IMG/VR virus record: IMGVR_UViG_3300033121_000823
Location: 19,348-83,347 of that record
Reading direction: 5' to 3' (one strand)
Length of the DNA: 64,000 nucleotides
Source: a virus
Lineage: Duplodnaviria > Heunggongvirae > Uroviricota > Caudoviricetes
The notes beneath the pieces were generated by a model that worked only from the letters and a program-made list of their open reading frames with translations, did not search any database and was not told where the DNA came from. This document shows, piece after piece, positions 16,105 to 62,905 of this stretch. Each line of letters starts with the position of its first letter. Position 1 is the stretch's first letter. The translations under genes and the position numbers were made by a program.

Positions 16105-16317
16105 TTATACATCATCAAAAATTTTTGGAGGATTTTTTAACATTAAAGTTATAACTACTGCTCCGCTAGCAAACATTAGTCCAACAACAGATGCGTGCTG
16201 TGCATCAATATTTCTTTCAAAGTTCCAGCCGCCAATATACAGCGGAATGAATGGAATAATAAAACAAAAGATAGCATTAAAACCTGCCCAAAATATACCT
16301 TTCATATGAATCTCCAA
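16105..16317 (-). CDS. small membrane protein
   Basis: 70 aa with two TM helices. Confidence 0.4.
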   Translation of the reverse strand: MEIHMKGIFWAGFNAIFCFIIPFIPLYIGGWNFERNIDAQHASVVGLMFASGAVVITLMLKNPPKIFDDV

Positions 16318-16728
16318 TTACATTACAACCTTACTTTCCACAAATATATCTTGCAACGATTCAAAGTAACCCTTCCAAGGTGGATACTTTTCAACCTTCT
16401 CGTAGTAAGTTTCATCGCTCACCGAGTCAATGATTGCTTGAGCATCCTTTTCATTTTTGTAAATTCCAACAATACAACCGTGTCCTTCAGAGTTTCCAAA
16501 GGAATCACCAGTACTATATCTCGCTAATACAATGTACACAGTTTGTCCACGAACTACATCAAAAGGAACTTCCTTAGTAATTGACATTGGAAAGGGTGCT
16601 ATTCGAATTTCTCTCAATTCGAAATTGTAGATTGATGTACCACGATACGACCAAGCTCCACCATCTTCCTCTGCTCCAATACCACTTTCTTCACACCATT
16701 CATCAAAGTCAACATATAGTGACGTCAT
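16318..16728 (-). CDS. hypothetical protein
   Basis: 136 aa ORF. Confidence 0.4.
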   Translation of the reverse strand: MTSLYVDFDEWCEESGIGAEEDGGAWSYRGTSIYNFELREIRIAPFPMSITKEVPFDVVRGQTVYIVLARYSTGDSFGNSEGHGCIVGIYKNEKDAQAIIDSVSDETYYEKVEKYPPWKGYFESLQDIFVESKVVM

Positions 16729-17255
16729 CGTATAATCCTTTTACATAACATTGAATAGTTTGATTCAAGTATCTCCTTGCCGAACCATGTAGGAATTTTA
16801 ACTACTGGAAATTCAATCTCAGTACTACTTAATAATTCTAATTCTAGAATAATCTTACAATTACTAAAAATATCTACATAAACTGAAAATGTTTCATAAA
16901 GATGTACTTTACGATTGAATCCTAGATGCCACTCAAAATTATTGGAATCTAATTTAAATCTTGTCTTAAAGAGATTTGCTGTTGGAAGAGATTCTAATAT
17001 TGTATAGGCGTCACGACTAATTTCATATTCTCTTTCATACTTTTTATACTTCTGTGTTATAAAATATACAGTGTTATTTTTACTTTCAAGTTTTCTTATT
17101 CTAGTCTTTCCATCATCTAAGTACTTTTGAGTTAACTGATAAGAATCAACAATATAAGGGACACAATGTTTTATAAAATTTTCAGTAGATAATTCAAATT
17201 TTTGCTCAATTTCAAACACTGTTGTATCCTTCTTTATATGCTCTATTAAGAGCAC
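16725..17255 (-). CDS. hypothetical protein
   Basis: 176 aa ORF. Confidence 0.4.
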   Translation of the reverse strand: MLLIEHIKKDTTVFEIEQKFELSTENFIKHCVPYIVDSYQLTQKYLDDGKTRIRKLESKNNTVYFITQKYKKYEREYEISRDAYTILESLPTANLFKTRFKLDSNNFEWHLGFNRKVHLYETFSVYVDIFSNCKIILELELLSSTEIEFPVVKIPTWFGKEILESNYSMLCKRIIR

Positions 17256-17517
17256 CGTTAAAGTTTAGACTTCGTGGATTTCCAAGTTCTGCATCCATTT
17301 TACCCATCTCACGAGTATACTTACAGAGTAATTTTTCTACTTCCAATGTATATGGTTCTTCTGACATATAAAATGCTGTCCCATGAGCGGGACAGTTCAT
17401 ATGCATTTCTTCTCTCTTACATCCAGAACATTTCGTAACTCTAGGTAAGTATGGTGAAGTAACGCTACTACGTAGCGAAAGTTCTCTATGCCTTTTCATA
17501 CGATTTATCCAAATCAA
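17212..17517 (-). CDS. hypothetical Cys/His-rich protein
   Basis: 101 aa with CSGCK..HMNCPAHG. Confidence 0.35.
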   Translation of the reverse strand: MIWINRMKRHRELSLRSSVTSPYLPRVTKCSGCKREEMHMNCPAHGTAFYMSEEPYTLEVEKLLCKYTREMGKMDAELGNPRSLNFNGALNRAYKEGYNSV

Positions 17518-17695
17518 ACGGAGTAATGTGGTATATTGATTCTTCAGTCCATAGGATAGTATCCTTTTCTCTTCTATCCCATAGTTCTTCTTTATAGTTT
17601 AAGGCATTAATAGCCATTTCTATAGAAGAAAAAACTCCAATTATACTAGTATCGAAGTATTTTTTACAAGTACGAGTCAAAATATATAATTCCAT
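17486..17695 (-). CDS. hypothetical protein
   Basis: 69 aa ORF. Confidence 0.35.
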   Translation of the reverse strand: MELYILTRTCKKYFDTSIIGVFSSIEMAINALNYKEELWDRREKDTILWTEESIYHITPFDLDKSYEKA

Positions 17696-17712
17696 ATATA
17701 CTCCTTAATAAG

Positions 17713-17784
17713 TCCAGCCAGCAGAACTCGAATCTACTTAATGAGGGCCACAACCTCACGCATTACCATATATGCTATGGCTGG
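17713..17784 (-). tRNA. tRNA-His(GUG)
   Basis: Acceptor CCAGCCA/TGGCTGG, anticodon stem TGAGG/CCTCA with loop TTGTGGC. Confidence 0.55.
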
Positions 17785-17835
17785 GAAGGTGAGATAGGAT
17801 ACTATTGAGGTATCATTTCAACGCAGTAGCGTTGC

Positions 17836-17862
17836 GTTTTATCTGTAAGGACTTTTGTTTAT
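17836..17862 (+). terminator. hairpin plus T-run (plus-strand-oriented intrinsic terminator-like)
   Basis: CAACG-CAGTAG-CGTTG followed by CGTTTTAT. Confidence 0.3.
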
Positions 17863-17907
17863 ACAGTTTGCCATTAAAACTACTATCTCATTTATAGGAA
17901 TATACAT

Positions 17908-18132
17908 TTACTTACTCTTCCGAAGGAAGGGAATACTTCCCCAGCGTTCCTTAGTCTTTTCAAGTCCAACTTCTTCAGAAATCTTCTTCGCCTTAAGCGA
18001 AGCATCAGTCGAAAGTTTTGTACTTTCCAACTCAACCTTTTTATTGAGATGAATGACCGTTCCAATAATGCCCACTGAAAGAACAATGGCAAGACAAACA
18101 ATTCCACACAACTTTACTTCATGTGACATTTC
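17908..18132 (-). CDS. small membrane-anchored basic protein
   Basis: Track ORF 17908..18249 overlaps tRNA-Arg; likely starts at internal MSHEVKLCGIV... Confidence 0.35.
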   Translation of the reverse strand, partial: EMSHEVKLCGIVCLAIVLSVGIIGTVIHLNKKVELESTKLSTDASLKAKKISEEVGLEKTKERWGSIPFLRKSK

Positions 18133-18164
18133 AAAACTCCAAAAATTAATAGGAAAAGAAATAG

Positions 18165-18236
18165 TGCCCTTCATAGGATTTGAACCTACTCTTATACTTT
18201 CGTAGAGTATCGTGCTCTCCGTTACACTAAAAGGGC
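18165..18236 (-). tRNA. tRNA-Arg(ACG)
   Basis: Acceptor GCCCTTT/GAAGGGC, D GTGT-AACGGAG-AGCAC, anticodon stem ATACT/AGTAT with loop CTACGAA. Confidence 0.6.
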
Positions 18237-18364
18237 ATAGCACACTCAATTGGTTTGTCCAATATCTCTACTAAACTTAAAAAGTAGAAATGTTATGATA
18301 TTCATGAGTATCATTATTACACCATAAGTGTGTAAGCTTGTTAGAGGTACATATGATAGTTCTA

Positions 18365-18445
18365 ACTTACTCAGCGGAAGCGCAGAAAATCGAATTCTGG
18401 ACCCTTTCGGGCACTGTTTTCAAGACAGTTTAGCACGCCAACTGC
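18365..18445 (-). tRNA. tRNA-Ser(UGA), type II
   Basis: Acceptor GGAAGTG/CGCTTCC, anticodon stem ACTGT/ACAGT with loop CTTGAAA, variable arm GCCCGAAAGGGT, T-arm CAGAA-TTCGATT-TTCTG. Confidence 0.55.
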
Positions 18446-18509
18446 AATCACTTCCTGGTCGCGGATTCTTACGCTCATGAAACGTAAGTTTGCTAGCTTA
18501 ATCCGCAAG

Positions 18510-18595
18510 CGTTCCACTGGGGAATCGAACCCTATCCTTCCAACCAACGTATTTAAGGAATCAACTTAGAAGATTGATGTCGGCTACAGTGGAAC
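18510..18595 (-). tRNA. type II tRNA, anticodon unresolved
   Basis: Perfect acceptor GTTCCAC/GTGGAAC, T-arm TAGGG-TTCGATT-CCCCA, about 86 nt with long variable region. Confidence 0.4.
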
Positions 18596-18602
18596 GTAAA
18601 CA

Positions 18603-18668
18603 GACATCACTTTTTAAACAAAAACCATTGTTATTTTGATAGTTGCTGATGATGTCTTAGTACCGTGT
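18603..18668 (-). ncRNA. conserved inter-tRNA element A (hairpin AGACATCA...TGATGTCT containing ATCAGCAACTAT)
   Basis: Shares TTTTGATAGTTGCTGATGATGTCTT with element B (22444..22499) and ATCAGCAA with 15975..16032; sits between tRNAs. Confidence 0.35.
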
Positions 18669-18670
18669 AC

Positions 18671-18742
18671 GGGTAACGCCCCCGTCTCATCAGATTGAAA
18701 TTCTGAGAACCTCACTTGAAGTTAAACACGGCATATTATTTT
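18671..18742 (-). tRNA. tRNA-Glu(UUC)-like with atypical T-loop
   Basis: Acceptor GCCGTGT/ACACGGT, D AACT-TCAAGTGA-GGTT, anticodon stem TCAGA/TCTGA with loop ATTTCAA, T-arm ACGGG-GGCGTTA-CCCGT. Confidence 0.4.
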
Positions 18743-18797
18743 TGGTGTATACTATATAGGCACCATTTCTGGAAACTTTTATCTATAGGAGAATCAA

Positions 18798-19382
18798 ATG
18801 TACACCTGCAAATGTGGGACTATATTCACACAAACAAAACATAATCAAATTTATTGTAGCAAAAAATGTAAATATAAATTTAAAAGATTAAAAGTATTAG
18901 CAAATAAAAACAAAAATAATTTTTGTATTGTATGTAATACAAATACATATAATCCAAAATATTGTTCTAAAAAATGTTATTTATCAATAAATAAAATTTC
19001 TAGTCCAAAATTAAAAGATGTTTTTTGTAAAAAGTGTAATACGTTTCTTAGAAACGGTTCTACATTATCCCAAATAAAAATTTGTAATAATTGTAATCCT
19101 AATTATGTTGATTGGTCAAAAATAACAAAAATAGAAATGAGAAATAAATATAAAAATTCATTGCAATATCATTCAAGACTACGTTCTTTAGCAAGAAAGA
19201 AGTGTAAAGATAATACCTGTAAAATATGTGGATATACATTACATATTGAAGTATGCCATATACGTCCTATATCAGATTTTCCAGACACAGCTTTAGTTTC
19301 TGAAATAAATGATATGTCAAATCTTGTAGCTTTATGTCCTAATTGCCATTGGGAATATGACAACGGATTAATAAAACTTTAG
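18798..19382 (+). CDS. HNH homing endonuclease, free-standing in tRNA cluster
   Basis: Multiple CxxC zinc fingers; C-terminal HIEVCHIRPISDF ... LVALCPNCHWEYDNG is an HNH His-Me finger; plus strand among minus-strand tRNAs. Confidence 0.75.
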   Translation: MYTCKCGTIFTQTKHNQIYCSKKCKYKFKRLKVLANKNKNNFCIVCNTNTYNPKYCSKKCYLSINKISSPKLKDVFCKKCNTFLRNGSTLSQIKICNNCNPNYVDWSKITKIEMRNKYKNSLQYHSRLRSLARKKCKDNTCKICGYTLHIEVCHIRPISDFPDTALVSEINDMSNLVALCPNCHWEYDNGLIKL

Positions 19383-19383
19383 C

Positions 19384-19452
19384 AGCGGAACCTGGAATCG
19401 AACCAGGGAGGTTAGCTTATGAAACTAACGAGATACCACTTCTCAATTCCGC
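19384..19452 (-). tRNA. tRNA-Met(CAU) (could be fMet, Met or Ile-lysidine type)
   Basis: Acceptor GCGGAAT/GTTCCGC, anticodon stem TTAGT/GCTAA with loop TTCATAA, T-arm CCTGG-TTCGATT-CCAGG. Confidence 0.5.
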
Positions 19453-19455
19453 AAG

Positions 19456-19529
19456 TTTCACTAGTTGGACTCGAACCAACGCTGTCGCGGACTATTAATC
19501 CCGCCGTTCTACCACTGAACTATAGTGAA
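19456..19529 (-). tRNA. tRNA with 8-nt anticodon loop (ATTAATAG), identity unresolved
   Basis: Acceptor TTCACTA/TAGTGAA, classic D-arm GTTC-AGTGGTA-GAAC, T-arm GTTGG-TTCGAGT-CCAAC, anticodon stem GCGGG/CCGC(T). Confidence 0.45.
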
Positions 19530-19671
19530 TCCTCCATTATTAGTAGCGATGGATTGACACTCATTTTAGTCGCCGTAACTTTACACCAATAACTCCGACT
19601 CAAAGTGTCGTTGTGTTCATATACAGCCAAAGTAATCATATTTTAATTCCCATTACTGGGGAATCGCGCGA

Positions 19672-19710
19672 GTAGTCCGGGTAGGAATTGAACCTACGAC
19701 TTCCACTTTA
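19672..19710 (-). tRNA. 3' exon of intron-containing tRNA (anticodon likely UAU or GAU)
   Basis: Anticodon 3' stem AGTGG, variable AAGTC, T-arm GTAGG-TTCAATT-CCTAC, acceptor CCGGACT complementary to GGTCCGG at 20021..20027. Confidence 0.45.
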
Positions 19711-19992
19711 TCTTACCACTATAGTTTTCACTACCAATAAATTGTTTGTGGTCTGGACTTTTTCTTTATCATGATATTATTTCTAATATTTTAGATATTT
19801 CCCGTAAAGTCTCTGCACTTTTTGGCGTCTTCAATCAAGAATTAGACAAATGTATACTATTGTGTCATAATTGTCACTGTGAAGAACATGCCAACTTAGC
19901 TCAAGATTGCCATGATAGTTAGTAACTATCGAAGGTTTCCTTGAATTTGAGAAATTCTACTTTTACCGTTTCCAGTAAAGCACTCATAAATC
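19711..19992 (-). mobile_element. group I intron in tRNA anticodon loop (about 280 nt, no intact ORF)
   Basis: R-like GTGCAGAGACTTTACGGGAAA and S-like AAGAAAAAGTCCAGAC (compare td R GTTCACAGACTA, S AAGATATAGTCGGAC); 5' exon ends in U, intron ends in G. Confidence 0.45.
19795..19920 (+). pseudogene. remnant HNH-like ORF inside the tRNA intron (antisense)
   Basis: Short ORF ending ...ELDKCILLCHNCHCEEH resembling the C-terminal LCPNCH HNH motif of 18798..19382. Confidence 0.25.
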
Positions 19993-20027
19993 TAAGAATG
20001 GCGCTCTAACCACTGAGCTACCGGACC
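19993..20027 (-). tRNA. 5' exon of intron-containing tRNA
   Basis: GGTCCGG-TA-GCTC-AGTGGTTA-GAGC-G-CCATT-CTT; no downstream complement for anticodon stem until 19702..19706. Confidence 0.45.
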
Positions 20028-20159
20028 ATACGGCCTATCGGCCGATATATTCTTTACTACAAACTAAATATATTCTATATGAGTGGACACTGTGGGAGTC
20101 AAACCCAAAAAACTTCGTTGCAAGCGAAATCCCTACATCGGTAGGACCAGGCCCATTAT

Positions 20160-20354
20160 TTATATCTTCACAAGATTATTAGGTTCAAAAGAGGCGAAAG
20201 TCTGTTTATTACTTCGTCTCATATACTCAACTCTAACACGCTTTTCACTAAAACCGCAGATGATACCGCGTTTAAGTCGTGTTGTACAACCAATCTTTAC
20301 AGGCATTACAACCTCATCACCAAGCGATAGTTCTTTTCCGGCAAAATCTTTCAC
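20160..20354 (-). CDS. hypothetical small protein
   Basis: 64 aa ORF. Confidence 0.3.
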   Translation of the reverse strand: MKDFAGKELSLGDEVVMPVKIGCTTRLKRGIICGFSEKRVRVEYMRRSNKQTFASFEPNNLVKI

Positions 20355-20614
20355 ATTACATTCCTTATATGGGCCTTTGTCTTCTCAATTCTTTCAAAGT
20401 TAGCTCTGCCATCATTACATGATAAACAGGCAACCCAAATATCTTCATCATACCAGCCTAGTCTACCATTACATCCAAGACACTCTTTATCAATATTATT
20501 GCAATATTCCTCATATTGTTTTTGTGACATATCTCCATCAATGTCACTCGGTAGTCTTCCAGGTTTTGCCAACAGTTTATCTGGTAGTTGTTTCATGTGG
20601 TTTCCATTTTTCAT
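20351..20614 (-). CDS. small zinc-finger protein
   Basis: CLGCNG ... CLSCNDG. Confidence 0.35.
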   Translation of the reverse strand: MKNGNHMKQLPDKLLAKPGRLPSDIDGDMSQKQYEEYCNNIDKECLGCNGRLGWYDEDIWVACLSCNDGRANFERIEKTKAHIRNVM

Positions 20615-21200
20615 AAATTAAATTATCAATTTTAATTTGCATTTCTTTTTTAAATTCATTAATTTCAGTTAATTTATGATGATTAGGACATAATGGTATT
20701 AGATTTTTAACGTCATTATTACTATGATTATAGTCAATATGATGCACTTCTACAACTTTATCCCAGTCACATATTGCACATTTATACTCCCAATATTGAA
20801 AACAGATATGTCTATAAATAGTTCTTGTTTTAGAACCTTTAACAAACATTCCAGTTTTATACTGACCGTTATTTTCCCCGCTTCTAAAGAATGTATTCGC
20901 ACACGCTCTAGAACAAACGCTTTTTTCATCCTTATGATTTGTTTTAGTTTGAAATTTAATATTGCAAACTGGACAAACCTTTTCAAGTATTATATACTTT
21001 CTCGACCATGCCCATTTATCAAAATGGGAAATATTTAAGTTATTTTCAACAATAATTTTTTCAAGCTTTTTAAAACCATTACCATTTATTGGTATATTTA
21101 AAGCTCTAGCAAACTCACTTTTACTTTTTGATTGATTAGCTATTAATTGTAAATTTTCTATAGACTGCATAGTATATCTCCTTAATATACTATACACCAA
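20577..21200 (-). CDS. HNH homing endonuclease
   Basis: CPVCN/CSRAC zinc fingers and VVEVHHIDYNHSNNDVKNLIPLCPNHH HNH motif. Confidence 0.7.
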   Translation of the reverse strand: MVYSILRRYTMQSIENLQLIANQSKSKSEFARALNIPINGNGFKKLEKIIVENNLNISHFDKWAWSRKYIILEKVCPVCNIKFQTKTNHKDEKSVCSRACANTFFRSGENNGQYKTGMFVKGSKTRTIYRHICFQYWEYKCAICDWDKVVEVHHIDYNHSNNDVKNLIPLCPNHHKLTEINEFKKEMQIKIDNLIYEKWKPHETTTR

Positions 21201-21226
21201 TTTTAGTCTAACATCAAAGATTTCGG

Positions 21227-21304
21227 TCTAGTAGGTCGGATTTGAACCGACGTAATCTCCTGTTCCCAAAACAGGCGAGATAAACCAAACTCCTCTACTA
21301 CTAG
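21227..21304 (-). tRNA. tRNA-Pro(UGG)
   Basis: Acceptor CTAGTAG/CTACTAG, anticodon stem CCTGT/ACAGG with loop TTTGGGA, T-arm GTCGG-TTCAAAT-CCGAC. Confidence 0.55.
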
Positions 21305-21308
21305 TTGT

Positions 21309-21408
21309 TCGCGAATATAGGATTCTAACCTATTCTCAGTTCCGTAAACTGCACTAGCCTCATGCACCAGAAAAGAAGTTCTAATCATCGTCATGACAAA
21401 CATTCGCG
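21309..21408 (-). ncRNA. atypical tRNA-like element (100 nt) flanked by 7-bp inverted repeat CGCGAAT/ATTCGCG
   Basis: T-arm-like ATAGG-TTAGAAT-CCTAT and anticodon-like CAGT-TTACGGA-ACTG; no canonical D-arm. Confidence 0.3.
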
Positions 21409-21411
21409 AAG

Positions 21412-21485
21412 CTCCATCCCTACGTAACGCTCGTAGCAAAGCGGGTGTTAACAGCACCCCGGATTCACTTGCTTCCTCGGATGGA
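21412..21485 (-). tRNA. tRNA-Asn(GUU)
   Basis: Perfect acceptor TCCATCC/GGATGGA, anticodon stem GGGTG/CACCC with loop CTGTTAA, T-arm CTACG-AGCGTTA-CGTAG. Confidence 0.5.
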
Positions 21486-21550
21486 ATAATACATAAGTGA
21501 TTGTTATCTTGAGTAATTAGCTACTTTACTCTCATCCAATGTTATGTAAG

Positions 21551-21623
21551 CGATGTATACGGGAATTAAACCCGCAGCATCGTGTTCGACAAACACGCCT
21601 CATTATCGTTTGAGTCATACACC
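21551..21623 (-). tRNA. tRNA-Asp(GUC)
   Basis: Acceptor GGTGTAT/ATACATC, D CTCA/TGAG, anticodon stem CGTGT/ACACG with loop TTGTCGA. Confidence 0.6.
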
Positions 21624-21627
21624 ATTA

Positions 21628-21715
21628 GTATCGACAACAGGATTTGAACCTGTATGGTATTTTTATAACCGGCACGTTCTAAGCGTGATGCGTCTGCCTT
21701 TCCGCCATGTCGACA
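21628..21715 (-). tRNA. tRNA-Leu(UAG), type II
   Basis: Acceptor TGTCGAC/GTCGATA, anticodon loop CTTAGAA, long variable arm, T-arm ACAGG-TTCAAAT-CCTGT, 88 nt. Confidence 0.55.
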
Positions 21716-21804
21716 TACTTTCTACCGAAAGTAGTAAAGACAAAATATAAAGCTTAAAATAAGCGAAATAATTATAACTGCTAGAAGCACAAATATAGCA
21801 ATAA

Positions 21805-22020
21805 TCATTTACAATAAACCTTTACCTCTTCTTTTTCTCTATCAACTTCTTTATATCCACCTTTTCTAGCAACATCAGTAGTTGGAGACTGAACATTTCT
21901 ATCTTCAAACCAAACTGTGCAGTCTTGCTCGCCTTGTCCTTCAAACCAACTTGCTAAAATCTTAGCTTGTTTAAAGGTTAACCCTTCAAAAATACAACGT
22001 GCCATAATTATTCCTTTCAA
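21805..22020 (-). CDS. hypothetical protein within tRNA cluster
   Basis: 71 aa ORF with upstream spacing consistent with RBS. Confidence 0.4.
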   Translation of the reverse strand: MKGIIMARCIFEGLTFKQAKILASWFEGQGEQDCTVWFEDRNVQSPTTDVARKGGYKEVDREKEEVKVYCK

Positions 22021-22025
22021 TTTAT

Positions 22026-22099
22026 TGGTGGAACCATAGAGAATCGAACTCTACTATTCTGGGTAAGAGCCAGAAGCATCACCACAATGCTTTGGTTCC
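22026..22099 (-). tRNA. tRNA-Lys(CUU), CCA encoded
   Basis: Acceptor GGAACCA/TGGTTCC, D GCAT-TGTGGTG-ATGC, anticodon stem TCTGG/CCAGA with loop CTCTTAC, T-arm TAGAG-TTCGATT-CTCTA. Confidence 0.6.
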
Positions 22100-22197
22100 A
22101 ACTACGTTGGTATTATAGTTACAAAACTGACTAGTGTTCCACATAATGGATTGGCCTCCCAATTTAATTGCTTGGAAATTTTTGCTGAACTAGTCAA

Positions 22198-22269
22198 GTA
22201 GGGCCGCAGGGACTTGAACCCTATTCTTCTTGTTAAAAGCAAGAAGCTTCACCGTAAAAGCTTCGACCC
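22198..22269 (-). tRNA. tRNA-Lys(UUU)
   Basis: Acceptor GGGGTCG/CGGCCCT, D GCTT-TTACGGTG-AAGC, anticodon stem TCTTG/CAAGA with loop CTTTTAA. Confidence 0.6.
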
Positions 22270-22368
22270 CAAATATTGCACATACATTGAATATTAAAAC
22301 TCTTATTATAGTTTGCAGAACCATAATAATTGCCAATGTCATCTACTGCATTATTAGATGGTGCAAGT

Positions 22369-22439
22369 GGATTGTGAAGGATTTGAACCTCCATCACCGG
22401 CTAATTCGACGGTGCATTTTTCATTATGCTAACAACCCA
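22369..22439 (-). tRNA. tRNA, anticodon arm non-canonical (unresolved)
   Basis: Acceptor GGGTTGT/ACAATCC, D GCAT-AATGAAAA-ATGC, T-arm GGAGG-TTCAAAT-CCTTC; anticodon region ACCGTCGAATTAGCCGGTG. Confidence 0.4.
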
Positions 22440-22443
22440 TTAG

Positions 22444-22499
22444 AACAGACTACGAATCGCATCAATTAACAGTTGATAATTTTATAGTTGCTGATATAG
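22444..22499 (-). ncRNA. conserved inter-tRNA element B (hairpin AGACTA...TAGTCT containing ATCAGCAACTAT)
   Basis: Aligns with element A over TTTTATAGTTGCTGATATAGTCTT. Confidence 0.35.
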
Positions 22500-22502
22500 T
22501 CT

Positions 22503-22575
22503 TGGCGGGCGGGGTTGGTTTTGACCAACAACTCTAACTAAAGTTAGTGTATTTCTTTATACTACCCACCCATAA
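22503..22575 (-). ncRNA. tRNA-like gene with 4-nt anticodon loop, CCA encoded
   Basis: Acceptor GGGTGGG/CCCGCCC, D GTAT/ATAC, T-arm GTTGG-TCAAAA-CCAAC, GCCA 3' end; CTAAC-TTTA-GTTAG hairpin replaces the anticodon loop. Confidence 0.35.
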
Positions 22576-22921: not shown

Positions 22922-23539
22922 ATGGCGTATATAGTAGTATACACTTCACATAATCCAGTAAAGAGGTCAAAAAAAATGAACAAGTGCGAACAATGTCAAA
23001 ACGATTCCAATGGTAGATTTTGTTCTAAACGATGCTGTATTATTTGGAATAATAAAGCTAGAGCCAAACCTAAAAAGGAAAAAGTACAAAAACTTTGCCT
23101 AAACTGTTCAAAGCCAACTAAACGTAAATATTGCTCAAGTGATTGTTCACAACAATATAAAAAGCAAAGCTTATGTTTAAATTGTAACAATAAAACAAAA
23201 AGAAAATTTTGTTCCACAAAATGTCAAAGACAATTTTTAGATAAAAAAATATTTCTCAATATAGAGTCAGGAGTTAACTTATGTCTACATAGCAAAAAAC
23301 GCTATCTAATACATAAATATGGTGACAAGTGCTCTATATGTTCGGTTGAAACATGGCTCGATAAACCACTCGTGAAGATTTTAGACCACATTGATGGTAA
23401 TTCATCAAATAATGATATTACTAATCTTCGTTTAGTTTGCTCAAATTGCGACTCTCAACTACCAACATACAAAAGTAAGAATAAAGGAAACGGTAGACAT
23501 TACAGACGTGAACGATACAAAAACAATCAATCATACTGA
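22922..23539 (+). CDS. HNH homing endonuclease
   Basis: Repeated CxxC/CSxxC zinc knuckles; C-terminal HIDGNSSNNDITNLRLVCSNCD HNH motif. Confidence 0.7.
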   Translation: MAYIVVYTSHNPVKRSKKMNKCEQCQNDSNGRFCSKRCCIIWNNKARAKPKKEKVQKLCLNCSKPTKRKYCSSDCSQQYKKQSLCLNCNNKTKRKFCSTKCQRQFLDKKIFLNIESGVNLCLHSKKRYLIHKYGDKCSICSVETWLDKPLVKILDHIDGNSSNNDITNLRLVCSNCDSQLPTYKSKNKGNGRHYRRERYKNNQSY

Positions 23540-42967: not shown

Positions 42968-44032
42968 TCATAATACTGTTGTTTTATCCTTATAAGTTGT
43001 TCCATAACTCTTCCACTTGATTGGTGATGAAATTAATGACTCTGAAAAACCTTTCGGCTTCTTATCGCACCAAGTTAAGAATATTCCGTCAGGTTTAACA
43101 ATTCTTTCAGCATTTTGAAAGATTCTTAAATTGTCACCAAATGTTCCATACTTGATTGGACCTTGATTTTTGTTGAATTTATTATGGTCGTCACCTAAAT
43201 TAATTCCAATTTCGGATTCGTTGAACGGTCCATCACCATGCCTTGAAAAGAATGTACGAATTACTCCAACAATTTCGGCGGTAATCCCTCTTAGTTTACA
43301 AAAATCTAGTGCATATCGAGGAGTTACACTGCTCCAAGTAGTGTACGGAATCATTCCATAAACTTCATCTAATCCAAAACCTTGAGTTCCCTCAAAAATA
43401 TAACACTTAAAGTGTTCTTCATATGGAGCTTCAAACATTTCAAGCGTTTCACCACACCATGACCACGGATTAAAGCTTATTAGCTTTTCAAGTATTTCAT
43501 AAGTACCAGAATAATTATAAAAAGAATCTATATATCTCTCTTTCATGAGATAAAGCTTATCTAGCTTATCCTGTACAGAGTCTCCATAAAAGATTGCGTC
43601 ATTGCCATACTTTAGGAAATATTCCTTAGTCTTTCCAACTCCAACTCCACAACTTAAATATCCATCATGGAAATCCATATATTTTTGGAGTGGAGTAGTT
43701 ACTAAACATTTAGGATGTATCCTCATTACATCTCTAAAATTTACAAAATTCTTCAACGCTTCATATTCACGACGCATTGCCAATGGTTCTACAATAGAAT
43801 TCCTATCATGCAATGTTTTCACCCCATGAAATGTTCCACTTCCAAATTGTGAGAAGATATGACTATGACCACTTGGTAAAACTACTCTATGTCCAGCCTG
43901 ATGGCCACCACAAAATCTGACATTTACTACGTCAGATGGAAAGTGCGTCTTAACGGCGTTAGCCGTAAAATAATCTACTGCTGTACCCTTTCCCTCATCA
44001 CCGAATCCCATACCAACTACAATTTTATTCAT
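42968..44032 (-). CDS. adenylosuccinate synthetase family protein (PurA-like, possibly PurZ)
   Basis: GFGDEGKGTAVDY (P-loop GDEGKGK), CGGHQAGHRVV (GGHNAGH), FEGTQGFGLD (FEGAQG); IMP-site motif GTTGRGIGP diverged to CGVGVGKT. Confidence 0.7.
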   Translation of the reverse strand: MNKIVVGMGFGDEGKGTAVDYFTANAVKTHFPSDVVNVRFCGGHQAGHRVVLPSGHSHIFSQFGSGTFHGVKTLHDRNSIVEPLAMRREYEALKNFVNFRDVMRIHPKCLVTTPLQKYMDFHDGYLSCGVGVGKTKEYFLKYGNDAIFYGDSVQDKLDKLYLMKERYIDSFYNYSGTYEILEKLISFNPWSWCGETLEMFEAPYEEHFKCYIFEGTQGFGLDEVYGMIPYTTWSSVTPRYALDFCKLRGITAEIVGVIRTFFSRHGDGPFNESEIGINLGDDHNKFNKNQGPIKYGTFGDNLRIFQNAERIVKPDGIFLTWCDKKPKGFSESLISSPIKWKSYGTTYKDKTTVL

Positions 44033-46710: not shown

Positions 46711-46781
46711 GCGTAGCGAGTAGTCCCGCAGGGAATCGAACCCTAGAAGCCGACTTTATAAGAATCAGCCGTACAACCAGT
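46711..46781 (-). tRNA. tRNA, anticodon probably UAU (Ile-AUA type)
   Basis: Acceptor GGTCCTG/CGGGACT with GU pairs, anticodon stem TGATT/AGTCG with loop CTTATAA, T-arm TAGGG-TTCGATT-CCCTG. Confidence 0.4.
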
Positions 46782-46815
46782 AGCCAGGACCATACTGCCT
46801 TTCGGCAGTTTTAAT

Positions 46816-62789: not shown

Positions 62790-62833
62790 GTTTTTTCTCT
62801 ATTAACTTTTGATAAATCTGAATAATCGCGAAG

Positions 62834-62905
62834 TGTCTCTACTAGGACTCGAACCTAGATTTTGGGATTTAGAGTCCCTCGTATTTCCAATTATACGATA
62901 GAGAC
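62834..62905 (-). tRNA. tRNA with anticodon CUA (putative amber suppressor, or sense-UAG decoder)
   Basis: Perfect acceptor GTCTCTA/TAGAGAC, D GTAT-AATTGGAA-ATAC, anticodon stem AGGGA/TCCCA with loop CTCTAAA (C32 U33 C34 U35 A36 A37 A38), T-arm CTAGG-TTCGAGT-CCTAG. Confidence 0.5.

Follow-up and report, generated by a model that had tools for sequence, protein, structure and literature searches.

The window, by which we mean the whole stretch of 64,000 nucleotides (nt) from positions 19,348 to 83,347 of the IMG/VR virus record IMGVR_UViG_3300033121_000823, carries on its minus strand a gene for tRNA-Ile(UAU) that is interrupted within the anticodon, between U34 and A35 (site 34/35), by a group I intron of 282 nt, and the P6 loop of this intron holds in antisense the remnant of an HNH homing-endonuclease gene (Table 1). 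The 5' exon (20027..19994) reads GGTCCGG-TA-GCTC-AGTGGTTA-GAGC-G-CCATT-CTT and its final base, at 19994, is U34; the 3' exon (19711..19673) reads ATAA-AGTGG-AAGTC-GTAGG-TTCAATT-CCTAC-CCGGACT-A, of which the last base, at 19673, is the discriminator A, and CCA is not encoded by the gene. The boundaries were set by the rules of group I introns, in which a U precedes the 5' splice site and G is the last base of the intron. With introns allowed, ARAGORN called tRNA-Ile(tat) i(35,282), the acceptor and anticodon stems pairing over the gap, and the exons joined in silico gave a clean cloverleaf with the anticodon UAU, again tRNA-Ile(tat) by ARAGORN. In its default scan the same program called 17 tRNAs in the window, the intron-bearing tRNA-Ile not among them, and the Rfam tRNA scan likewise made no call there. 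An original prediction, made from the letters alone, had described two tRNA halves pairing across an insertion, a 5' exon that ends in U and an intron that ends in G, and these features hold, U19994 and G19712 being the bases concerned. Its junction coordinates were right within one base and off by one, which is immaterial as A19993 and A19711 are the same letter. It had left the spliced anticodon as UAU or GAU; UAU stands, and GAU is excluded, since it would require an intron with A as its last base and since UAU is what the natural intron-less allele shows.

That allele was found in sister contigs. An exact-sequence look-up of the neighbouring 87-amino-acid (aa) open reading frame (ORF; 20351..20614) retrieved three of them, L249, L250 and L251. 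L249 (Logan, SRR32380191) is 100% identical to 22550..17351 of the window (5.2 kb), intron included, and as it is an independent assembly the arrangement is not an assembly artefact. In L250 (JGI 3300045345) and L251 (Logan, SRR23702466) the same tRNA is uninterrupted, GCGCCATTCTT being followed directly by ATAAAGTGGAAGTCGTAGG with the join at CTT/ATAA. The comparison with related phages that the original prediction had called for thus fixes the junction and the UAU anticodon and places the insertion at 34/35 of the anticodon loop; removal of the intron restores a canonical tRNA, the in-silico product and the natural allele sharing one junction. With the tRNA model of Rfam the intron-less allele reaches 62 bits, one of the highest scores in the array. 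The intron is a presence/absence polymorphism among nearly identical phage genomes: the 3' flank of L250 differs from that of the window at 2 positions in the first 1,780 nt (99.2% identity over the whole 1,829-nt match), and over 62 nt the 5' flank has 3 mismatches and an indel of 1 nt in the D loop, after which it is rearranged. Two further contigs that had been considered as intron-less alleles, L003 and L004, were rejected, since they are tRNA-Ile(UAU) genes of other phages in which the acceptor and T stems differ. Exact-pattern scans of IMG/VR with the R element and with the whole 5' exon gave no match, nor did a scan of JGI metagenomes with the exon-intron junction, and therefore no close relative of the phage lies in the IMG/VR or JGI metagenome sets.

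The covariance-model search proposed with the original prediction gave a match of Rfam Intron_gpI (RF00028) to 19734..20017 on the minus strand with 55.4 bits, above the curated gathering score of 50 (E-value 2.5e-11 for the whole window and 2e-13 for the 501-nt region), and this is the sole non-tRNA Rfam family found in the window. The core helices P3 to P9 can all be drawn, and the R-like (GTGCAGAGACTTTACGGGAAA) and S-like (AAGAAAAAGTCCAGAC) sequences noticed earlier are the P7/P3' and J8/7/P7' elements. P3 pairs UUUCUC with GGGAAA, P4 pairs UUCAAG with CUUGAG, and P7 pairs G[A]GACU with AGUCC, its bulged A being typical of the guanosine-binding helix; P7 is presumed to hold the guanosine-binding pair. 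The ends of the insert in the P6 loop (L6) pair as an extra stem, UCUUCA with UGAAGA. An unconstrained minimum-free-energy (MFE) fold of the intron alone recovers P2, P3, P4, P5, P6 and P9. The internal guide sequence UUUAUGAG forms 8 contiguous pairs with the ligated exons CUU/AUAAA: in P1 its GAG (19985..19983) pairs with C32-U33-U34 of the exon, with a U.G wobble of U19994 and G19985 at the 5' splice site, and in P10 its UUUAU (19990..19986) makes 5 pairs with AUAAA of the 3' exon (19711..19707).

Table 1. Coordinates of the intron, its exons, its structural elements and the HNH genes of the tRNA array (window positions).
Feature	Position	Strand	Description and basis
5' exon of tRNA-Ile(UAU)	19994..20027	-	acceptor strand, D arm, anticodon-stem CCATT, loop C32 U33 U34; ARAGORN intron mode, sequence, L250/L251
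3' exon of tRNA-Ile(UAU)	19673..19711	-	A35 U36 A37 A38, stem AGTGG, variable loop AAGTC, T arm, acceptor strand; sequence, ARAGORN, intron-less allele
Group I intron, 282 nt	19712..19993	-	first base A19993, terminal (omega) G 19712; Rfam RF00028, covariation, precise absence in L250/L251
Internal guide sequence	19983..19990	-	intron bases 4-11; sequence; guide co-varies with exon context
P2 hairpin	19960..19980	-	GAAA tetraloop; 8/8 pairs changed on both sides in relatives; MFE fold
P3 5' strand, P4, P5/P5a	19900..19954	-	P3 5' strand 19954..19949; P4 19945..19940 with 19905..19900; P5/P5a hairpin 19935..19910; covariation and MFE fold
P6 and L6	19822..19894	-	UUGGC 19894..19890 with GCCAA 19826..19822, closing 63-nt L6 (19889..19827); fold; L6 of relatives
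R element	19798..19813	-	P7 5' strand G[A]GACU 19813..19808, J7/3, P3 3' strand GGGAAA 19803..19798; Rfam alignment, covariation
P8	19767..19797	-	UAUC/GAUA with inner hairpin AUAUUA-GAAA-UAAUAU; 3/4 P8 pairs changed on both sides
S element	19755..19766	-	J8/7 and P7 3' strand AGUCC 19759..19755; nearly invariant in 53 relatives
P9 three-way junction	19716..19751	-	CCAC/GUGG, hairpins CAA-UUUA-UUG and UAGU-GAAA-ACUA; fold, sequence identity to relatives
HNH homing-endonuclease remnant	19821..19901	+	FGVFNQELDKCILLCHNCHCEEHANLA; C-terminal Cys/His part only; tblastn, family profile
Free-standing HNH gene	18798..19382	+	Pfam HNH_2 2.6e-10; PHROG HNH; convergent with the tRNA array, stop codon abuts tRNA-Met 3' end
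Free-standing HNH gene in tRNA array	22922..23539	+	PHROG, Pfam; HNH domain 52-56% identical to HNH ORFs inside related tRNA-Leu introns
HNH-like gene	20577..21200		weaker match

The fold is supported by covariation among relatives. At least 120 viral contigs of IMG/VR contain the P9 motif GGTAGTGAAAACTATAGTGGT, mostly followed by A-N-G and the 3' half of a tRNA, and among the loci fetched from these matches we delimited 86 intron-bearing tRNAs, recognised by a U preceding the intron, a G as its last base and an anticodon stem of 5 bp that is restored on joining (ARAGORN-checked). Leu(UAA) with the intron at 34/35 accounts for 44 of the 86; Arg(UCU) is interrupted at 33/34 in 7 and at 34/35 in 5, tRNAs with a CAU anticodon at 33/34 in 7, and Ile(UAU), the window included, at 34/35 in 4, the remainder being Asn, Lys and other hosts. 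The viral hosts also include long-arm tRNAs with UCA or CAA anticodons, and default tRNA scans miss these intron-bearing genes. When the structure of the window intron was mapped onto an alignment (A2) of 53 distinct introns of at most 300 nt, 92.2% of the cells were standard pairs, as against 33-45% when the 3' partners were slid by 1-3 columns; 38 of the 63 pairs tested were altered on both sides, and none of 500 shuffles reached any of five measures. The compensatory changes lie mostly in P2, P3, P5, P8 and P10, with both-side changes in 6/6 pairs of P3, 2/2 of P5 and 3/6 of P4. P7, which is nearly invariant, and the hairpin of P9 that served as search motif, which is invariant, are uninformative for covariation.

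Whether the host is a Leu, Ile, Met, Asn or Arg tRNA, the columns of P1 and P10 vary in step with the exon sequence around them. The guide reads UUUGAG in Leu(UAA), UUAUGAG in Ile(UAU) (the window and L033), AUGGGUC in CAU hosts and GUUGGCAGC in Asn(GUU), so that a single guide A facing U36 separates the Ile(UAU) from the Leu(UAA) hosts; this A is what adapts a Leu-type intron to tRNA-Ile(UAU). As the core of the window intron is closer to phage Leu(UAA) introns (72-76% identity) than to other Ile(UAU) introns, its sequence suggests that it moved from Leu to Ile independently.

L6 has 4-13 nt in the relatives, or else an HNH ORF. In the window its 63 nt are exactly 21 antisense codons, VFNQELDKCILLCHNCHCEEH, and the HNH remnant is restricted to this loop and the adjoining P6 strand. 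The original prediction had noted a short plus-strand ORF within the intron that looked like a decayed HNH endonuclease. The ORF exists (19746..19922, 58 aa) and is HNH-derived at residues ~26-52, but it does not end at LLCHNCH as had been stated and continues CEEHANLAQDCHDS. A tblastn search against the fetched loci divides it in two. For residues 1-25 (MWSGLFLYHDII...) the only matches are to the conserved J8/7-P7-P3'-P8 core of other introns read in antisense, and this part is not protein. Residues 26-51 (FGVFNQELDKCILLCHNCHCEEHANL) align with the C-terminal motif of genuine HNH ORFs, 118-300 aa long, that adjoin, or overlap the ends of, intron-bearing tRNAs. Many independent matches, with E-values of 1e-4 to 2e-6, all fall on the motif ELDKCILLCxNCHxEIH (62% over 26 aa in L103, E 2e-6; 71% over 21 aa in L084; also L006, L113, L096, L008, L077 and others). 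Of the 1,709 pieces that make up the six-frame translation of the window, a family profile of 18 full-length HNH ORFs matched the remnant alone (32 bits, E 8.8e-9); the choice of these ORFs was guided by their similarity to the query, though within the set, too, the motif is strongly conserved. The profile match bears out the antisense remnant, which the generic HNH models of Pfam missed, the 58-aa ORF giving no match to them at E<=1.

What is left of the gene is the C-terminal ELDKCILLCHNCHCEEH part, which aligns with positions 100-126 of the 191 in the family hidden Markov model and comprises the last 27 residues of the ORF; the remnant has neither a start codon nor the N-terminal catalytic His. 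The presence of a whole HNH core in the ORF, with YHD at residues 8-10 set against the catalytic FHH in alignments with L069 and L090, was considered and rejected, as that stretch is antisense J8/7-P7; LWSGLYLHH, the antisense of the ribozyme core, recurs in every relative. Intact HNH genes lie in L6 in sense in L015/L034/L080, L018, L062 and L118; L063 (162 aa) and L045 (153 aa) have theirs in antisense. To carry an endonuclease gene in L6 on the opposite strand is thus a living arrangement in this intron family, and the window holds the wreck of such a gene. Long introns called by ARAGORN around HNH ORFs in L021, L069 and L058 are spurious: Rfam finds intact tRNAs inside them, and therefore those HNH ORFs are free-standing.

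We propose that the element is, very probably, a working group I intron from the classical lineage of bacterial tRNA introns, placed between U34 and A35 of tRNA-Ile(UAU) in the tRNA array of a large T4-like phage. Its catalysis we infer to run as follows. The array would be transcribed from the minus strand and the intron would fold into P1 to P9, the guide holding the 5' exon end C-U-U in P1 with the U.G wobble. Free guanosine bound in P7 would attack after U34, and the freed 3'-OH of U34 would then attack after G19712, the 3' exon AUAAA being aligned by P10. The product would be a canonical tRNA reading AUA codons, whose ends host or phage enzymes would trim and to which they would add CCA. 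As AUA makes up 86 of 327 Ile codons (26%) in 13 sampled genes, a tRNA with the anticodon UAU has work to do. As to history, an HNH homing-endonuclease gene would once have occupied the P6 loop on the opposite strand, and all but 21-27 of its codons would have been deleted; having lost it, the intron would no longer be able to home alone. Its presence in one and absence from another of nearly identical phages is as the homing cycle predicts.

The DNA upstream of the tRNA bears on the direction of the change. Directly upstream of tRNA-Ile lies an indel hot spot (20053..20324 in the window, against L250:835-1231 and L251), in which L250 and L251 have an intact 94-aa Cys-rich ORF of which the window retains both ends only, and in turn lack 131 nt of the window's 64-aa ORF (DUF7205). 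Such one-sided divergence beside the insertion site is as a co-conversion tract from an intron donor would leave, and mildly favours gain over precise loss; since the region is an indel hot spot anyway, the direction, gain or loss, can only be inferred. In the same region the sister contigs carry a tRNA-like element with acceptor stem, T arm and CCA (L250:872-950), which is diverged in the window (20060..20160). Three bases before the 5' end of the tRNA, at 20031..20044 on the minus strand, is a hairpin, CGGCCGATAGGCCG, which in L250 and L251 reads CGACCGATAGGTCG; both strands of the stem have changed so as to keep it paired, which suggests a conserved processing or terminator hairpin.

Some observations weigh against a working intron under selection. 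P1 is short, with 3 pairs followed by a U-U mismatch and a G.U pair, as is also the case in the Ile(UAU) intron of L033; the RF00028 score lies 5 bits above the threshold, and in the alignment to this model P1 was wrongly placed in the D arm; folding could be slowed by the 63 nt inserted in L6; and with a second tRNA-Ile(tat) in the window and sister phages that live without the intron, the intron-bearing copy need not be under selection. The second tRNA-Ile(tat), at 46720..46791 on the minus strand, was called by ARAGORN only and was not supported by Rfam at threshold; it has an odd D arm, and its acceptor ends, GGTCC.../...GGACTA, are as in the intron-bearing tRNA. One might accordingly suppose that the ribozyme is decaying with its endonuclease gene, that splicing is inefficient and that this tRNA-Ile copy is a pseudogene nearing loss, and the destroyed endonuclease gene, the weak P1, the absence of the intron from sister genomes and the other tRNA-Ile call would fit such an end. 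We consider it quite improbable, as every core helix is intact and the near-invariant core positions of the family are all kept, the guide fits its exons precisely, down to the A that faces U36 and is specific to Ile, the tRNA encoded by the exons is canonical and reaches 62 bits in its intron-less allele, and the rival tRNA-Ile call is the one without Rfam support. That the halves might be unrelated truncated pseudo-tRNAs with no intron between them, as the silence of the default ARAGORN and Rfam tRNA scans at the locus could suggest, has next to no probability and is refuted by the pairing of the acceptor and anticodon stems across the gap, by the covariation-backed group I core between the halves and by the sister contigs that hold both fused as one tRNA.

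The CHNCH reading frame could also be a chance motif in AT-rich RNA rather than the relic of a gene, a reading to which the lack of a Pfam HNH match and the antisense origin of the N-terminal half of the ORF (LWSGLYLHH in all relatives) lend some colour. It is nevertheless very improbable: the 18-ORF profile, for all that its ORFs were chosen by query similarity, finds only the remnant in the six frames of the window, many independent tblastn matches converge on one C-terminal motif, and the motif fills exactly the L6 insert that is absent from relatives, at the site where whole HNH genes lie, two of them antisense. A further view, compatible with a working intron, is that the intron is kept for the benefit of the phage, either because it disrupts the site of tRNA-targeting homing endonucleases, its own or a competitor's, or because it blunts host anticodon nucleases until splicing. 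Three HNH genes stand within the tRNA array, two of them related to intron-associated families, free-standing HNH genes abut intron-bearing tRNAs in L084, L006, L066 and L090, and phage introns are known to home collaboratively and in trans (PMC2988022). We regard such a benefit as unlikely all the same, for L250, which lacks the intron, also has the nearest HNH gene (18798..19382), a gene that thus does not need the intron for self-protection, and the mature spliced tRNA would be as exposed to anticodon nucleases as any other.

The genome in whose tRNA array the working intron is proposed to lie is that of a large T4-like phage. Genes for rIIA, rIIB, an RNA ligase and a nicotinamide phosphoribosyltransferase are found in the window, along with about 20 for tRNAs (ARAGORN and Rfam), and its G+C content is 35%. 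The nearest match of its rIIA, with 33% identity, is the rIIA of an uncultured huge phage of 595 kb, and a comparison of 20 kb of the window with GenBank phages gave no near-identity match. A distant relative of the L6-remnant family is the HNH gene at 18798..19382 (27% identity by blastp to the ORFs of L103 and L096, E 4e-7). As this gene also adjoins the intron-less allele in L250, it is unlikely that it depends on or targets the intron site, and for the same reason it is an unlikely trans-acting partner of the intron. A second presence/absence polymorphism of the array is found at 16239..17886, where about 1.6 kb of the window, with a tRNA-His (17712..17784) and a 176-aa ORF without family match, correspond to about 210 nt in L250.

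Other tRNAs of the window are of interest in their own right. The callers disagree at 21551..21623 and 22368..22438 (minus strand), two tRNAs that Rfam finds and ARAGORN misses. At 19455..19529 (minus strand) lies a tRNA with an anticodon loop of 8 nt, AUUAAUAG (ARAGORN 'tRNA-??? taat'; Rfam 50.6 bits), which is kept in L250 with one anticodon-stem change at 19500 and could be a frameshift-type or otherwise unusual decoder. A well-formed tRNA with the anticodon CUA, of the amber-suppressor type (labelled Pyl by ARAGORN), is at 62833..62905 (minus strand; Rfam 62.5 bits). Apart from the tRNAs, 42968..44032 (minus strand) encodes a protein of the adenylosuccinate-synthetase family (PF00709, 1e-28) whose best PHROG is annotated as PurZ-type, as in 2-aminoadenine (Z-base) phages, and this match could point to modified DNA.

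Group I introns of the same family are found in tRNA genes of at least 120 viral contigs, as at the IMG/VR loci L005-L126 (e.g. L083:1219-1505, L063:3793-4559, L045 and L015). They are present in a cultured phage as well: Atu_ph07, a jumbo phage of Agrobacterium (L127; MF403008, ~112,900-113,260), has an unannotated tRNA-Leu(UAA) with a 278-nt intron at 34/35, where the record shows only a small coding sequence for a 'hypothetical protein', and the word 'intron' is absent from the genome paper. The huge-phage assemblies LR756501, LR756503 and LR756511 also match a typical member of the family. At the gathering score Rfam missed the tRNA introns of Atu_ph07 and LR756511, and it gave no match at E<=0.01 on the dnaB introns of crAss-like phages; members with large inserts therefore tend to escape the general model. 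Two of the contigs with intron-bearing tRNAs also encode a transfer-messenger RNA (L033:2862-3216, Rfam 71.7 bits; L069:8122-8405, 61.5 bits).

In bacteria the 16-nt S/P9 element AGTCCAGACCACAAAC occurs in the genomes of at least 120 species, Nostoc, Scytonema, Trichodesmium, Bartonella and Bradyrhizobium among them, and 105 of the 120 listed matches lie inside intron-bearing tRNAs (Leu(UAA) 35, Met(CAU) 15, Arg(UCU) 13, and others). The core of the window intron is thus homologous to introns in bacterial tRNA genes. Because this element is common to bacterial tRNA introns and the insertion is at the same 34/35 site as that of the tRNA-Leu(UAA) intron, the window intron belongs, as an ordinary member, to the classical lineage of group I introns in bacterial tRNA genes, the setting alone being new. 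Its subgroup may be IC3, to judge from a resemblance to tRNA-Leu and Azoarcus-type introns. A 2026 survey of 333 tRNA introns, confined to bacteria, lists the sites 33/34, 34/35, 35/36 and 36/37 (PMC13011429); cyanobacterial and plastid tRNA-Leu(UAA) are interrupted at 34/35 and tRNA-fMet at 33/34, and proteobacterial tRNA-Arg and tRNA-Ile(CAU) are also hosts (PMC13011429).

A 2014 review of bacterial group I introns stated that all known phage introns lie in protein-coding genes, despite the many tRNA genes of phages (PMC3984707). A later report of a group I intron in a phage tRNA was not found in the full-text literature, which is no proof, as subscription-only papers were outside this coverage. 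A group I intron in the anticodon loop of a tRNA is textbook knowledge, and its setting here, a phage tRNA-Ile(UAU), polymorphic and with an antisense relic, is noteworthy rather than astonishing. What the locus offers is a snapshot of the homing cycle, with intron-plus and intron-minus alleles, almost identical DNA on the 3' side and a decayed endonuclease gene at one place in one phage. The wider pattern, that phages harbour a large number of tRNA group I introns which stand unannotated, is more interesting. As standard tRNA scans miss intron-bearing genes, the tRNA repertoires of phages are under-counted, including the suppressor tRNAs from which recoding is inferred, and carriage by phages makes the hypothesis of horizontal transfer of bacterial tRNA introns directly testable. 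It is possible, though we would not yet call it probable, that phages, and large ones with tRNA arrays in particular, are a major overlooked reservoir and shuttle of tRNA introns of the bacterial and plastid type, with HNH genes in the P6 loop in either orientation, hops between tRNAs (from Leu(UAA) to Ile(UAU), also to Arg, Met, Asn and Lys) by small changes of the guide, and cycles of gain, endonuclease decay and loss. If true, the phage shuttle would offer a concrete means by which tRNA introns came to be spread so patchily over the bacteria, a matter of long debate.

Among known systems, the tRNA introns of bacteria are the nearest. The window intron has in common with them the 34/35 site of tRNA-Leu(UAA), the core sequences, the compact P1-P9 fold, GAAA loops on P2 and P9 and exons that pair in the anticodon stem, and it departs from them in its host, tRNA-Ile(UAU), in a guide retuned by one base for U36, in the phage genome that carries it and in the antisense HNH remnant of L6. 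The dnaB introns of crAss-like phages (Kolpuevirus OQ198718; cr111_1 MT774387) are likewise phage-borne and are 85-89% identical to it over the last ~60 nt, from the 3' strand of P7 to the terminal G, whereas they interrupt a protein-coding gene and carry a GIY-YIG endonuclease ORF in sense. Endonuclease genes in a phage tRNA array with polymorphic flanking markers are familiar from SegB of T4 and other free-standing homing endonucleases (PMC2330249), although SegB is of the GIY-YIG type and the tRNA genes of T4 have no introns. An intron with a dead endonuclease near live free-standing genes recalls mobE with the I-TevIII-defective nrdB intron and F-CphI with the psbA intron (PMC2988022). Unlike in these collaborative pairs, the neighbouring HNH gene of the window is also present in intron-less genomes, which argues against a partnership. 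Nuclear ribosomal DNA (rDNA) group I introns carry genes of His-Cys box endonucleases on the antisense strand, and the window intron resembles them in having an endonuclease frame in a peripheral loop on the strand opposite to the ribozyme; in contrast to those eukaryotic introns, its frame is of the HNH family, its host is a phage tRNA and the gene is down to its last ~25 codons.

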